The position numbers and the translations under genes are program-made. A stretch of DNA of 64,000 nucleotides, taken from the IMG/VR virus record IMGVR_UViG_3300002026_000001, positions 68,837-132,836 of that record; one strand, written 5' to 3'. The notes under the pieces are model-generated. The model was not told the origin of the DNA. It searched no databases and saw only the letters and a program-made list of their open reading frames with translations. The stretch is from a virus. How positions within the stretch are numbered: the first letter of the stretch is position 1; the number at the start of each line of letters is the position of its first letter. Positions 5,807-48,652 of the stretch are shown here, one piece after another.

Positions 5807-6394
5807 TTATCGGGTTAAAACAATCTTGGCAAGAGCGGTTACAACCATAGGGTCGTACGTGGTTCCGCTTTTGATAATGTCAAGGGTTTCGGCTCTTGAA
5901 AATGCACGCTTGTAGGTTCTCGCTTGTGTCATTGCGTCAAAACCGTCTGCAACCGCAATAATACGTGCCAGAAGATTTATGTCGCTCCCACTGACATTGT
6001 CTGGATAGCCTGACCCGTCGAAGTGTTCGTGAGTTTGAACGATTACGTCAGCAACTTCCTCAGAACCGTCAATGCCGGACGCTTTAATGATCCTAGAGCC
6101 AGCATTTGAGTGTGTCTTCATCACTTCAAACTCAAGACTCGTCAACTCAAAATGACTGAGAAGAATATTGTCAGGAATTCCAATCTTTCCAATATCGTGC
6201 ATCAGGGATGCCACTTCAAGAACTTGCAGGGCTTCGTCTGGAAGGAAGCCCAAGCAGTCAGCAAGCAGCATAGAAAGTTTGTGGACTCGAATACAGTGCT
6301 CGGCGGTACGAGCGTCCTTTTCGAGAATGGCTTGCAACAGTGATGATTTTAAAGGGTTCATTCTTGGTATACTCTTCAAACCTGATTGTCCCAC
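5807..6394 (-). CDS. HD-GYP domain phosphodiesterase (RpfG-like, stand-alone)
   Basis: HDIGKIGIPDNIL, HEHFDGSGYP, ARIIAVADGFDAMT..R.YK signature motifs. Confidence 0.92.
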   Translation of the reverse strand: MGQSGLKSIPRMNPLKSSLLQAILEKDARTAEHCIRVHKLSMLLADCLGFLPDEALQVLEVASLMHDIGKIGIPDNILLSHFELTSLEFEVMKTHSNAGSRIIKASGIDGSEEVADVIVQTHEHFDGSGYPDNVSGSDINLLARIIAVADGFDAMTQARTYKRAFSRAETLDIIKSGTTYDPMVVTALAKIVLTR

Positions 6395-6421
6395 ATCAGG
6401 TGTTGTGCAACAGAGACTAGT

Positions 6422-6745
6422 CTACCCTTTGGGATTTTTTTCTTGAAACTCTTTGTATAGTTTTTTGACCTTGTCCTTATTGCGTGGAACGTCGGAGTCA
6501 AGCTTCAACATTAGACGCACGGCTTCGAGCTTCGACTCAACTTCATCGAGCCACTCGTTATGTTCTGCCACACCTTCTGAATCTTGGTGGTTGGAGTCAA
6601 TCCATTGCTTGAAACGCTTTGCTTCTGCAACGTACTGCGGTATGAAATCCATCAGCACTATTATTGGGAATGGCTGAGTGTAATCTGGAAGTGGGTGCTT
6701 ACCAACTTCGTATTTAAAACCAGAGATAGAGATTTTCATGGTCAT
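6422..6745 (-). CDS. Hypothetical protein (N-terminal MKISIS motif)
   Basis: 107-aa ORF in the array. Confidence 0.55.
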   Translation of the reverse strand: MTMKISISGFKYEVGKHPLPDYTQPFPIIVLMDFIPQYVAEAKRFKQWIDSNHQDSEGVAEHNEWLDEVESKLEAVRLMLKLDSDVPRNKDKVKKLYKEFQEKNPKG

Positions 6746-44429: not shown

Positions 44430-44835
44430 AATTTGGTGTGTCCGTCGATTCTTTGTAACAAGGTCATCTTCATTATCAGATGCACGGACACTACAGGAGT
44501 TTTATGTCCTGTCGACCTCGCCGAACATTAGGCTGTTAAGCCGCTGCGCGGAATTGCGAGTCGTTTGCATTTACAGAGTAGGCCCATATTAACGTGCGCG
44601 CCCATGCACGAGTTGTCAGTCGCCGCTTCATCACCCTGTCGAAACCATGACTACCCCATCAGAAACACACTCGATCCCAAGCTCATTCGAGTCGGTACCA
44701 AACTCAACGTGTAGTCTGCGGGACTTGAGCAGCAGACTTTCAATGAGTGTGTTTCTGGTGGAGTAGGCGGGAGTCGAACCCGCGTCCAGAATGCCTCTAC
44801 TTAAACGTCTGTTTGGTTTCCCAAACCACAACTAT
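44430..44835 (-). ncRNA. ssrA: Circularly permuted (two-piece) tmRNA; tag (A)ANDSQFRAAA
   Basis: 3' tRNA-like end GGACGCGGGTTCGACTCCCGCCTACTCCACCA (ends 44756) lies upstream of the 5' end GGGGTAGTCATGGTTTCGACAGGG (starts 44657). Acceptor GGGGTAG/CTACTCC has G3-U70; P2 is CAGGGTG/CATTCTG; tag ORF 44568-44536. Outer boundaries approximate. Confidence 0.92.
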
Positions 44836-44858
44836 TTTCTTCGATGCAACGAAGACTT

Positions 44859-46080: not shown

Positions 46081-46132
46081 TGGCGGAGGCGGTGAGAGTC
46101 GAACTCACGGTCGGTTTCCCGACGCCGGTTCA
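46081..46132 (-). pseudogene. 3' half of a type II (Ser-like) tRNA
   Basis: Variable arm GTCGG-GAAA-CCGAC, T-arm GTGAG-TTCGACT-CTCAC, CGCCTCC G CCA; no 5' half between it and the upstream tRNA-Ser. Confidence 0.7.
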
Positions 46133-46141
46133 ACATGAGAG

Positions 46142-46231
46142 TGGCGGAGAGTGAGAGGGTCGAACTCTCAAGGGTATCTCTACCTCGACGGTTTTCAAGA
46201 CCGCTGCCATCACCAATTGGCTTGACTCTCC
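46142..46231 (-). tRNA. tRNA-Ser(UGA)
   Basis: GGAGAGT/ACTCTCC acceptor, GCGGT-CTTGAAA-ACCGT anticodon arm, long variable arm, G73 and CCA. Confidence 0.93.
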
Positions 46232-46232
46232 G

Positions 46233-46937
46233 TTATTCATACAAGCGTATGAAATCTTTCCCGTAAGCTTTTATAACTTGTGGCAAAATCTGCTTTGAGA
46301 TAACGCGCTTTCCTATGAACAGAAGCTCGTGTGGAAAAGCGGCCTTCTTCGCTTTCCACTGTTCGCTTTTAAATCCTTTTACTTCAAGATATTTCCAAGT
46401 ACCTGACGAGCCTTTGTATCGAAAATCTGGAAGATACAGGTGTTCCTTTCCCTCAAACACGTACTTGAACCGCTTTCGTGCACGTTTTACTTCGCGTCCA
46501 TGAAGTTCACAAAACAGAACAAAGGCAAGTTCCCAACTTGAATCGCACCAGATACCGTTGTATCTACCTTTGCGCCCACGTCCAGAACCTTCCCGGTACC
46601 CACCTGCACCGACTTCTTTCATGCGTTTGCTGATTCGACGTTTGGCCTCTTCAGTGTGCTTATGTCCGGCGCGACCAGTCAAGGTTTTAGAGGTTGCCTT
46701 TGCTATGTCTTTAACACGCTTGTCGGTCTTTTTTGTAAGTCCAGCGTTCCACGAAGGAACGCCTGTTCTACAGCGGTGATGTTCACGACCAGCCCAAGGA
46801 TTCACGCCAACCTTGCCTAGTGCGTTTTTCGCTTTTTGGGCAGAACACGAAGACGTTGATTTAGAGCAGCACCACTTACCGGACGAAGCGAATTGCACAA
46901 TAGCTGTTTTTCCACAGCCAAACGAACACTTGGGCAT
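46233..46937 (-). CDS. Putative homing endonuclease (NUMOD3-like region plus PD-(D/E)XK)
   Basis: Start MPKCSFGCG (ATG 46937, SD GAGGAG); PSWNAGLTK/HTEEAKRRIS DNA-binding repeats; DSSWE...YLPDF...LEVKG; ends 2 nt before tRNA-Ser. Confidence 0.75.
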   Translation of the reverse strand: MPKCSFGCGKTAIVQFASSGKWCCSKSTSSCSAQKAKNALGKVGVNPWAGREHHRCRTGVPSWNAGLTKKTDKRVKDIAKATSKTLTGRAGHKHTEEAKRRISKRMKEVGAGGYREGSGRGRKGRYNGIWCDSSWELAFVLFCELHGREVKRARKRFKYVFEGKEHLYLPDFRYKGSSGTWKYLEVKGFKSEQWKAKKAAFPHELLFIGKRVISKQILPQVIKAYGKDFIRLYE

Positions 46938-47013
46938 GACCACACTCCTCAGAGATTGAAATCTCAAATTAGTATAATCAAGACCGGTGCAATAGACCAC
47001 TCTGCCACGCCTC

Positions 47014-47406
47014 CTAGTTCCGCTTCTCCCAACACGTCTTGACAACGTCAAGCAACTCTATCGGGCTATACGGTTTCTTTACGATACCGCAAGCGCCAGC
47101 GTCGATAATCTCAGCGTCGATACACGTTGTTGACGTAATCATCACGACAATGATTTCTGGATTCGTTTGCTTGAGCCGTCTCAAAGCCTGAATGCCGCTC
47201 ATTTCAGGCATCAGTACGTCCATCAAAACAATGTCGGGCTTGAGTTGGTGGACACGATCCAAAGCCTCAAGCCCTGTGTACGCGTCTCCAACAATTTCGT
47301 ACTCTTGAGCACGAAGAACGATGCGAAGAAGAGTTCTGGAAAACTTGTCGTCATCAACTATCAAGACCTTCGGATAGTGTGGACTCTCTTTCTCAATAAA
47401 CTTCAT
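47014..47406 (-). CDS. Single-domain response regulator (CheY-like receiver)
   Basis: VLIVDD, DIVLMDVLMP.MSG (phosphoacceptor Asp), VMITS, GA.G.VKKP. Confidence 0.92.
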   Translation of the reverse strand: MKFIEKESPHYPKVLIVDDDKFSRTLLRIVLRAQEYEIVGDAYTGLEALDRVHQLKPDIVLMDVLMPEMSGIQALRRLKQTNPEIIVVMITSTTCIDAEIIDAGACGIVKKPYSPIELLDVVKTCWEKRN

Positions 47407-47439
47407 CGCAGTCTCCGAACAATTTAAGGAAATGTACCA

Positions 47440-47880
47440 CTACGTCTTTCGACGCCACTCGCTTACGTTATAACTACGACCAGAGTCGTCTAGGTCTCGC
47501 GTGTGTTTGTGGTCTGGACCATGTCTTCACCATACTTAGATAGTGGGTTTAATTAAGCCACCGACGTCTGCATCGCGGTACAACCTACCGTGTTAATTGG
47601 TCGACCGTATTCTATTTTAGGTGCTTCCCGTTTGGTCTCTACACCTTACAAAGCGTGGCGGGAATCGAACCCGCAAGATTGCCCTGACCGTCGCGTGTTT
47701 TCACACGCCCGTGGAGTTGAACCACGAACACGATTTGTCTTGGCTCGGCGTTGGCGTACTGGAACACATGAGTAGGGATTTCACCTATTCGTCCAACGTA
47801 GCGTTCGCCGACTTTGAGAAGATTCATCGCAACTGCATTCCTACAGTTCGGTGCATAATACAAGCCACCTACATGCGCAA
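47440..47880 (-). ncRNA. Group I intron/ribozyme core (IC3-like); host gene not identified
   Basis: P3 CTTCTC (47821-16)/GGGAAG (47629-24); P4 TCGGCG/CGCCGA within AAAGTCGGCGAA and CGCCGAGCCAAG; R AAGGTGTAGAGACCA (47647-33); S GAAGACATGGTCC (47528-16), with P7 GACCA/TGGTC covarying from the usual GACUA/UAGUC. Boundaries approximate. Confidence 0.85.
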
Positions 47881-48056
47881 GTTGTTTTACCGTCTTTCGA
47901 TTGCAAGCTTCATCGTACAGGTGGTCCGCTTTTCACGTACTCTTAAGGCCGTGGGCCACGAAGCGCGTTTCTCATTACGCCAACCTATCCAACTACACCG
48001 CTTGCATTTTTCGGTGATGCCCCAATCAAGCGTTTAAATTACTATCTTTGCAAACC

Positions 48057-48094
48057 AAAGCGGCGAGTCGCGTTTATGCAAACTCGCCGCTTTT
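48057..48094 (-). terminator. Intrinsic terminator hairpin
   Basis: AAAGCGGCGAGT...ACTCGCCGCTTT inverted repeat downstream of ORF 48116. Confidence 0.7.
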
Positions 48095-48115
48095 CGTTAC
48101 AACCAGACCGGAAGA

Positions 48116-48556
48116 TTAGTGCGACTTGCCCGGAAACGGTTTTGCTTTTTGCAGGTTGGAAGGTTGACCCTTCTTGACAGGCTTCGCTTCGACCTTCTTG
48201 GCAGACTTGTCGGCCTTCTTGACCGGCTTGTCTTCAACCTTCTTGGCGACCTTGGCGTTGGTCTTTGCGTTGGTCTTTGCGGAGTTCTTGACTTCGGGTT
48301 TGGCCTTGCCAACGACCGGCTTCGCTGCAACCTTGCCGACAACTTTCTTTTGCTCGGGCTTGGCGACCGGCTTTGCGGCGGGTTTCGCGACCGGCTTGGC
48401 GCTGGTCTTTGCATTGCCACTGCCGACGGCTGAAGCCTGAGTTGCGAGGTTGTCGAGTTCGAGTTTCACAGCGTCGACTGCTTTGTTCGCGGAGGCCAGT
48501 TGTTTCTTCGCAACTTCAAGTTGACGAACCAGACGGCTAACGTTACGTGGATTCAT
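48116..48556 (-). CDS. Histone H1-like Lys/Ala/Pro-rich protein
   Basis: N-terminal coiled coil followed by AKPVAKP/KKVE repeats. Confidence 0.7.
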   Translation of the reverse strand: MNPRNVSRLVRQLEVAKKQLASANKAVDAVKLELDNLATQASAVGSGNAKTSAKPVAKPAAKPVAKPEQKKVVGKVAAKPVVGKAKPEVKNSAKTNAKTNAKVAKKVEDKPVKKADKSAKKVEAKPVKKGQPSNLQKAKPFPGKSH

Positions 48557-48652
48557 TTTGTTTCCTTGTCAGTTTGTAAAGTGGTTGTTGATGGTGGTAC
48601 ATGGTTAGTGTACCACCATTTGCTGCCTTTGAGTTAGTGACTAGACTGAAGA

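Follow-up and report, generated by a model that had tools for sequence, protein, structure and literature searches.

A discrete 604-nt phage unit with a predicted IC3-type group I core that lacks omega-G and a host gene

The stretch of DNA analysed here (the window) comprises 64,000 nt, positions 68,837 to 132,836 of the IMG/VR virus record IMGVR_UViG_3300002026_000001; positions below are those of the window unless a contig is named. Sequence comparison indicates that its minus strand carries, at 47434-47872, a complete IC3-type group I core belonging to a family of introns that interrupt phage tRNA genes. The core lies within a discrete element of 604 nt with exact boundaries, referred to as the unit. 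Three features that define an intron are missing from it: it has no omega-G (the terminal G of the intron), it interrupts no host gene, and its homologous 5' junction carries no U-G pair. We hold with moderate confidence that the unit is an orphaned, structurally intact descendant of phage tRNA anticodon-loop IC3 introns that now exists as a self-contained 604-nt unit.

A preliminary description of the locus, made from the sequence alone, had proposed a group I core with compensatory changes in P3, P4, P5 and P7 and had suggested a search with the Rfam model Intron_gpI (RF00028). Model positions 1-253, the full length of the model, do align at 47872..47496 on the minus strand, with E-values of 1e-4 in a 900-nt search and 3.5e-4 over the whole 132.8-kb record, but at 27 bits the match lies below the gathering score of 50. 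A genuine tRNA intron whose P6 bears a large insert, that of locus L141, likewise falls under this threshold (38.9 bits). As the RF00028 score is weak taken alone, closer relatives were sought. The 15-mer CAACGCCGAGCCAAG (47739-47753), which runs from the 3' strand of P4 into P6, was found in more than 117 viral contigs; among the loci listed, 49 are intron-containing tRNA genes with a split anticodon loop (ARAGORN, introns allowed), and about half go on into a short P6 hairpin and GAAGGTGTAGAGAC.

An alignment, A1, was made of 23 compact, non-identical phage tRNA-gene introns and a profile hidden Markov model (HMM) was built from it. RNAalifold recovered the anticodon stem, P2, P3, P4, P5, P6, P8, P9.0 and P9 from A1, with covariation in 26 of 43 pairs, and the pairs of P7 were added to the family list by hand. 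In the 64-kb window the HMM matches only the unit; the P6 insert divides the match into 47866-47738 (E 4.2e-9) and 47657-47434 (E 5.7e-15), which are collinear. All 45 consensus intron pairs (P2, P3, P4, P5, P6, P7, P8, P9.0 and P9) form in the unit, 12 of them changed on both sides with respect to the commonest family pair, which bears out the compensatory changes claimed earlier. The unit is identical to its relatives at 67 of the 70 columns that are invariant across the 23; the three deviating columns are both sides of one P6 pair, C-G in 23/23 relatives and compensated here as A47738-U47648, and omega-G. The G-binding pair of P7, G47637-C47517, is as in 23/23 relatives, and one other P7 pair has changed from U-A to C-G. 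With the G-binding pair intact, guanosine-dependent chemistry is plausible. The hairpin that had been described as GAAA-capped and P9-like is the family P9.

The 15-mer marks a very large family of phage tRNA-gene introns, of at least 117 loci (L021-L137). According to approximate ARAGORN calls, the hosts of the listed loci include tRNA-Leu(UAA), tRNA-Lys(UUU) and tRNA-Met(CAU), and several of these loci have an insertion of 58-116 nt in P6 or an endonuclease gene before the guide (e.g. L049).

Introns of the family end in AGUGGUAnG, directly followed by the 3' tRNA half, and omega-G is present in every locus with a readable P9.0 tail. The unit reads AGUGGUAC-A at this point, and the next G lies outside the unit. 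The same A47433 is found in a contig of the public sequencing run X2 (13.5x) and in a read-contig of run X5, both with 0 mismatches; since two independent contigs carry this base, it is not an assembly error. At the 5' end, the HMM places GGCUU-G of the unit on the family junction that follows GACUU. Here the family guide GAG (GGAGC or UGAGC) has become GCA, and the would-be exon strand pairs with GCACC in a closed hairpin; there is no U-G pair at this homologous junction. The hexamer at the guide position, 47849-47854, can pair 6/6 with CGGUGU, 140 nt upstream, in a candidate P1 that ends in U47995-G47854, G47854 being homologous to the wobble G of the family. Enforcing the candidate P1 costs 3.9 kcal/mol relative to the free minimum free energy (MFE) fold. 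Relatives provide precedents for a long insertion that separates the 5' splice site from the guide (L057, and L049 with its endonuclease gene). The likeliest activity would be a guanosine-dependent cut after U47995 with no normal second step, because omega is A.

No host gene was found around the core. The neighbouring open reading frames (ORFs) are complete, none is split, the receiver domain of the downstream gene is whole, and ARAGORN, run at default thresholds with introns allowed, detects no tRNA halves flanking the core. The preliminary description had read the flanks in this way. One of its proposals, a free-standing ribozyme without a host gene, agrees with the lack of exons, of omega-G and of a U-G pair at the ancestral 5' junction. 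Another, an intron in an undescribed non-coding RNA or leader, is conceivable insofar as a canonical 6-bp P1 with a U-G pair can form, but there is no omega-G with which splicing could be completed. The description had noted neither the loss of omega-G, nor the closure of the unit on itself in another sample, nor a core-less tRNA intron 0.4 kb downstream.

The boundaries of the unit were taken from a comparison of public runs over 47000-48600, using Logan contigs and 31-mers; stretches without cover in runs X4, X5 and X7, and the small-share runs X3, X6 and X8, were given no weight. Run X2, whose library type is not recorded, is another sample of the study that probably yielded this contig. 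A single Logan contig from X2, 634 nt long and with a depth of 13.5, equals 48030 to 47427 with 0 mismatches and begins with a 30-nt repeat of 47456 to 47427, a k-1 wrap-around. Since the wrap-around represents a cycle in the assembly graph, the unit exists as a circle or as a head-to-tail array. At the joint CAUUUCCU is followed by CUUGAUUGGGG, i.e. 47427 is joined to 48030, and the joint is unambiguous because the bases on both sides differ from the phage flanks. These flanks are at zero depth in X2.

In the phage record the unit is a clean insertion in a compact spacer between a terminator-like hairpin and the ribosome-binding site (RBS) of a response-regulator gene. Neither a target duplication nor bases shared at the joint are present. 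Once the 604 nt are excised, the hairpin and the RBS lie about 45 nt apart, and the rejoined flanks, AAUUUA-AACG followed by UAAAUU, form an inverted repeat.

Read-level matches point to a microbial-mat source for the phage and to relatives in fresh water, and the unit itself occurs widely with almost no variation (positions of all features are collected in Table 1). Contigs 94-99.5% identical to 47536-47928 come from X4 and X7, two freshwater RNA libraries of separate studies, in pieces covering 47536-47686 (2 mismatches), 47630-47833 (1) and 47696-47928 (14); on the flanking genes these libraries yield only short, poor matches. In the 94%-identical X4 contig five changes fall in the loop of the junction hairpin 47850-47869 and none in its stem. 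In X5, a freshwater DNA run, the integrated 3' junction (47323-47457) is unchanged and the neighbouring coding stretch is about 7% different (10/151 bases in the read-contig over 47000-47150).

If the X5 contigs share one genome, the DNA beside the unit is far better conserved than that 300 nt away; a gradient of this kind is expected after co-conversion, and the depth is just 2. One X4 contig joins 47885 to 47828, omitting the local hairpin and P2 (47829-47884). This joint was not used as evidence, as it comes from one contig with a short side of 21 nt and may represent a relative or an artefact.

Table 1. Features of the 604-nt unit and its immediate flanks, in 5' to 3' order on the minus strand
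Feature	Position	Strand	Basis
Upstream flank: 9-bp G+C-rich hairpin followed by a U-rich run, past the stop codon of a 146-aa gene	48051..48090	-	Read from sequence
Whole 604-nt unit	47427..48030	-	Limits from the X2 contig
5' domain without family counterpart; long L1 insert or leader	47873..48030	-	
Candidate 5' splice-site strand CGGUGU, putative cleavage after U47995	47995..48000	-	
Local hairpin GGUG(G)C/GCACC with vestigial exon-intron junction GGCUU-G, no U-G pair	47850..47869	-	
Guide (internal guide sequence, IGS, position) GCACCG, directly 5' of P2	47849..47854	-	HMM alignment to the family guide
P2 with GGAA tetraloop	47831..47848	-	7/7 family pairs, 3 changed on both sides
P3 5' strand, partner 47624-47629	47816..47821	-	6/6 pairs, 3 changed on both sides
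P4 (47806-47811 / 47745-47750) and P5 with 37-nt extension	47745..47811	-	P4 6/6, P5 2/2 pairs
P6 including insert	47643..47744	-	6/6 family pairs
T-arm-like hairpin 1, CGUGG-UUCAACU-CCACG	47710..47726	-	Sequence; MFE and centroid folds
6-bp hairpin GCGUGU-GAAA-ACACGC	47693..47708	-	MFE and centroid folds
T-arm-like hairpin 2, GCGGG-UUCGAUU-CCCGC	47658..47674	-	Rfam tmRNA model positions 347-363, 17 bits; present in fold
P7 5' strand with G-binding G-C pair, partner 47517-47521	47633..47637	-	5/5 pairs
P8 with 88-nt insert	47528..47623	-	4/4 closing pairs; HMM insertion of 81 nt
P9.0 (47509-47513 / 47436-47440), 43-nt insert and P9 hairpin	47436..47513	-	P9.0 5/5, P9 4/4 pairs
GAAA-capped hairpin, family P9	47443-47454	-	
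Omega-G position, reads A	47433..47433	-	G in 23/23 aligned relatives
3' tail UUUCCU, unit terminating at U47427	47427..47432	-	Boundary from the X2 contig
Downstream flank with single-domain response-regulator gene	47014..47426	-	Pfam PF00072, 3.6e-26, complete domain

The stretch listed for P4 and P5 includes the first 10 bases of the 15-mer CAACGCCGAGCCAAG.

If the unit is indeed an orphaned intron descendant with an intact core, it would be transcribed as the leader of the response-regulator message. The core would fold with the G-binding pocket of P7 intact, the guide would leave its local decoy hairpin to pair with the distant CGGUGU, and an external guanosine would cut after U47995. The exon-joining step at the ancestral site could not follow with A at omega, so the RNA would be cut or processed in place of being spliced. 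The unit would persist, and would probably spread, as a module of its own, with the addition to P6 acting as a peripheral insertion at a site tolerant of inserts.

A number of points weigh against this account. Ribozyme activity is a prediction from the modelled fold. The candidate P1 competes with two local hairpins in which its strands are otherwise held, CACCG/CGGUG upstream and GGUGGC/GCACC beside P2, and an exact match to a 6-mer within about 170 nt has an expectation by chance of about 0.04. The X4 variant breaks 3/7 pairs of P2, either through relaxed constraint or because the low-depth contig is chimeric. Occurrence in RNA libraries is no proof of transcription. As the library type of X2 is not recorded, the closed form could consist of DNA or of RNA, or be a tandem array. 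The preserved core may reflect a recent origin and not selection. No homologue of the unit as a whole was obtained, so the 5' domain, the P6 insert and the candidate P1 are without covariation.

The point on recent origin leads to a possible, though doubtful, alternative, namely that the unit is a stranded relic: a mobile tRNA intron that was copied into an intergenic site, or that lost its exons by rearrangement in this tRNA-rich region, and is now dead but young enough to look intact. The loss of omega-G, the unpaired ancestral 5' junction and a 5' domain without excess stability would all be consistent with decay, as would the setting, a region with other broken or rearranged tRNA-related pieces, and the failure of searches in viral, metagenome and genome collections to return a homologue of the unit. 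Other observations speak against a relic. Omega-G is the only uncompensated change among 70 invariant positions, all 45 pairs are kept, and the guide region has been rebuilt as a new perfect helix and not eroded. A dead relic would also sit uneasily with a closed unit at depth 13.5 without phage flanks and with 99% identity across other habitats and years.

The search for homologues was made in several ways. The pattern GTAGAGACCAAACGG gave 16 matches in viral contigs, none extending past the seed and none reaching RF00028; the two longest were rejected as copies since they read as coding sequence. A T-arm followed by AAGGTGTAGAGAC was absent from viral contigs (0 matches) and returned from metagenome contigs only L141 and two chance matches, and a relaxed T-arm pattern gave 19 viral matches, none with the family core. 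A 22-mer of the 5' domain and a pattern for the empty site (AAUUUAAACG followed by UAAAUUG) each gave 0 matches. Three matches to a 20-mer of the P6 insert in genome contigs were dismissed as chance matches in high-GC coding DNA. No match was obtained by blastn against phage GenBank records, and there is no second copy of the unit in its own 132.8-kb record. Relatives of the response regulator led only to loci 29-40% identical, none of which has an intron, and a 411-aa neighbour protein led to none.

The clean insertion, without target duplication and with a joint that shares no bases, would fit a non-autonomous mobile DNA element, in which case the closed form would be a DNA excision circle or rolling-circle product and the ribozyme would be cargo that renders insertions harmless, much as in ORF-less IStrons. 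We consider this a tentative and rather unlikely alternative. ORF-less IStrons and IStrons that splice after G are documented (PMC4227781), and the other runs of the study to which X2 belongs, the likely source among them, are DNA, by the guess of the tool used. Against these points, there is no transposase and no IStron end signature (TCAG or CGG 3' ends; TTGAT or GG targets), the hairpin near one end does not resemble that near the other, counter to IS200/IS605, no second copy exists in the record, and it would be strange for a DNA circle to occur at 13.5x while its donor is missing. In a comparison with IStrons as they are described, the unit shares a group I ribozyme within a discrete insertion that has no target duplication and is able to lie anywhere, but it has no IS genes or ends; IStrons keep omega-G and splice. 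The ends of the unit, CUUGAU and UUUCCU, and its left flank, AAACG, depart from the described IStron ends (PMC4227781). RNA circles with joined ends are documented for IStrons (PMC4227781), which are reported in the IStron literature from Firmicutes and Fusobacteria.

Known routes to the closed form were considered in turn. A tyrosine or serine recombinase was discarded since the joint has no shared core, IS200/IS605 since the end hairpins differ, and IS91/HUH since the sole likeness to it, CTTG-AT close to the joint, was noticed after the fact. The base before the unit is G48031 and its last base is U47427. These are the two bases of the group I rule (omega-G, -1 U) in exchanged order, as a back-splicing ring would need. 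Back-splicing by the ribozyme of the unit itself was not retained: as read from the sequence, the tail UUUCCU is complementary to GGGAAG, which is the 3' strand of P3, and no P10 was seen. With its sole guide in P3 and no P10, the back-splicing route is unsupported. It is nonetheless conceivable, albeit unlikely, that the closed form is a covalently closed circular RNA produced from the phage transcript and kept for a non-splicing job. If true, this would be a natural RNA ring with an intact group I ribozyme and a tRNA-like domain, for which a candidate job would be to serve a core-less tRNA intron found 0.4 kb downstream (see below).

The position of the unit invites comparison with ribozymes that act in leaders. 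Lee et al. are said to have described in 2010 a group I ribozyme of Clostridioides difficile under the control of a c-di-GMP-II riboswitch, and the preliminary description had raised a regulatory reading of this type. The unit resembles the C. difficile ribozyme in its leader position just before the RBS and in having alternative pairings at the 5' splice site; it differs in that no aptamer was detected, omega-G is missing and the insertion is also found elsewhere. In a ligand-controlled leader ribozyme the 5' domain would sense a ligand, choose between the decoy hairpins and the long-range P1, and thereby set expression of the response regulator. The unit does immediately precede the RBS; the long-range P1 and the two local hairpins exclude each other, with energies no more than about 4 kcal/mol apart. 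However, no riboswitch family is matched within 47300-48200 even at E<=10, and the 5' domain (47873-48030) has no Rfam match, no BLAST similarity to 117 family loci and an MFE no better than that of shuffled sequence (z-score +0.72), so that the folding energy gives no support to the earlier statement that the upstream ~160 nt are structured. In addition, a second X4 contig departs from the window sequence upstream of 47905, and the unit is an insertion that also occurs away from the response-regulator gene. We regard control by a ligand as very improbable.

Another element lies 0.4 kb downstream of the unit on the same strand. At 46081-47014 (minus strand) ARAGORN, run at its default threshold, recognises a tRNA of 88 nt whose variable arm is long; this tRNA is split after CCGGUCUU by 846 nt and has a perfect acceptor stem, G73 and CCA. 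The junction of the ligated tRNA would be CCGGUCUU joined to UUGAACCGG. The 846-nt intervening sequence follows U, starts with GAUUAUACUAAUUUGAG and ends in CAUG, thus obeying the -1 U and omega-G rule, and has CUAAUUUGAG, the P1 loop and guide, in common with the family introns L051, L053 and L093. No group I core was detected within it by Rfam search or with the A1 HMM. It contains a 234-aa ORF (46233-46937, minus strand) with similarity to PHROG endonuclease families (3.4e-8) that is probably a homing endonuclease, with NUMOD3-like and PD..EVK motifs recognised by eye. An intact tRNA-Ser(UGA), 46142-46231, follows directly after this ORF. The ligated anticodon loop would be CUUUUGA, so that a Ser-like body would carry the anticodon UUU.

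A core that has no splice sites and splice sites that have no core are thus close neighbours. The unit could in principle supply the catalytic core, in trans or from upstream on one transcript, to the core-less intervening sequence at 47014-46081. The split tRNA is a clean ARAGORN call, the intervening sequence keeps a family-type P1 and guide and omega-G while holding no group I core, and 0.4 kb of the same strand separates the two loci. Pairing of the unit with the ends of the intervening sequence or with the split tRNA is, on the other hand, no better than in shuffled controls, so the trans-acting arrangement stays a low-probability idea; the substrate position of the unit is filled by its own hairpin, and the unit also occurs without these flanks. 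Taken together we judge it very improbable. The juxtaposition may be a record of rearrangements among mobile tRNA introns. As both elements lie within 2 kb, the existence of natural trans-acting group I ribozymes becomes directly testable.

The tip of P6 carries an insert of 85 nt in which two T-arm-like hairpins and, between them, one GAAA hairpin are grouped at a junction. All three hairpins are present in the MFE and centroid folds, and the fold of the insert has a z-score of -1.9. The two T-loop hairpins reported in the preliminary description were recovered at their places; each has a 5-bp stem and a UUCRANY loop, as in a canonical T-arm, and both give local matches to the T-arm of the Rfam tmRNA model, the first at 47713-47723. 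The tRNA-like pairing proposed at the same time, GGGCGUG (47704-47710) with CACGCUU (47651-47657), fared less well: both segments are present, but in the MFE and centroid folds GCGUGU forms a local helix with ACACGC around a GAAA loop, so that the two pairings compete. The closing strands ACAAAUCGUG and CACGCUUUGU can extend P6, in which case T-arm 2 would stack on this extension in the way that a T-arm does on an acceptor stem. No model identifies the insert as a tRNA, with no RF00005 match at E<=10 and no ARAGORN call at default thresholds. The preliminary description had also suggested that RNase P might cut at this tRNA-like module and so yield a trans-acting two-piece intron.

A scan of 241 million metagenome records for the pattern of a T-arm before J6/7 returned one true parallel, L141, an activated-sludge contig with a real tRNA gene interrupted by an IC3 intron (6170-6620, plus strand, of that contig). 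The P6 of the L141 intron contains a near-complete cloverleaf (6316-6388), called as a tRNA by ARAGORN with an 8-nt anticodon loop and matching the Rfam tRNA model at 22.6 bits. The unit and the L141 intron share the family, the insertion point at the tip of P6 and a canonical T-arm whose closing stem continues P6. They differ in that L141 has both tRNA exons, omega-G and a near-complete cloverleaf, whereas the insert of the unit has two T-arms and neither a D arm nor an anticodon arm. Unrelated inserts of 58-116 nt are found at the same point in other listed family members, so P6 is a permissive site. By sequence comparison, tRNA-like cargo has entered P6 of this family at least twice, and the unit provides a second natural example of a tRNA-like domain grafted on P6.

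L141 thus presents a tRNA-like gene inside an intron inside a tRNA gene, and two more tRNA genes lie downstream of it. A permuted two-piece tmRNA gene with the tag ANDSQFRAAA occurs in the window itself (44445-44848, minus strand; Rfam tmRNA_permuted, 93 bits), and the T-arm of this tmRNA is almost the same in sequence as T-arm 2 of the insert in P6 (GCGGGUUCGACUCCCGCC compared with GCGGGUUCGAUUCCCGCC).

Group I introns are textbook selfish elements whose ribozyme serves to splice them out of a host gene. With the IC3 introns of phage tRNA genes, Azoarcus tRNA-Ile and cyanobacterial tRNA-Leu(UAA), the unit shares the core from P2 to P9.0, the GNRA loops of P2 and P9, the G-binding pair of P7, the junction sequences and the 15-mer CAACGCCGAGCCAAG. 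Unlike these introns, it has no tRNA exons, A in place of G at omega and an ancestral junction that lacks a U-G pair; the guide is preceded by some 130 additional nt, P6, P8 and P9 are enlarged by 85, 88 and 43 nt, respectively, and the whole is a discrete unit of 604 nt that closes on itself. The lariat-capping ribozyme GIR1 is likewise derived from a group I ribozyme and kept for a non-splicing reaction, with a rebuilt core that has no P1 or P2, whereas the unit retains the full ancestral core. The unit would work most like a leader or stand-alone ribozyme and belongs neither to the c-di-GMP-controlled class nor to the IStrons. A search of the literature found tmRNA and tRNA introns, IStrons and engineered permuted introns, and no exon-less phage IC3 ribozymes. 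Three properties set the unit apart, namely the loss of omega-G in an otherwise perfect core, a closed 604-nt form at the read level and the double T-arm insert of P6. The unit has retained every core pair and, besides one compensated P6 pair, all invariant bases but that which marks the 3' splice site. With its lack of exons and its nearly unchanged, self-closing form in other habitats, it hints that tRNA-intron ribozymes may serve phages in roles besides splicing, of which the searchable literature gave no description.

The source record, at 132.8 kb, is estimated to be about half complete; the phage is therefore large. The unit is found in a minus-strand stretch rich in RNA genes, among them the permuted tmRNA, a tRNA-Thr and a tRNA-Ser. 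Further ARAGORN calls of tRNA-Trp (47967-47701), tRNA-Leu (47588-47499) and tRNA-Gln (47432-46906) appeared only at -ps70/80 and were treated as noise. An antisense ORF at 47621-48037 and two smaller ORFs were rejected as genes, having no Pfam match and an odd composition.

The hairpin upstream of the unit (48051-48090) has a loop of 13 nt and is terminator-like by reading only, the terminator scan having given no call. Without the unit, TTGCAA, 17 nt and TAAATT (48031-48052 joined to 47421-47426) would form, by eye, a weak sigma-70-like promoter, whereas with the unit inserted the -10 position is taken by its first six bases, CTTGAT. The promoter-like and flank motifs have no repeats within the window. 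Downstream of the unit, the start of the response-regulator gene is marked by GGAG at 47413-47416 and ATG at 47404-47406, and a second contig encodes an identical response regulator.

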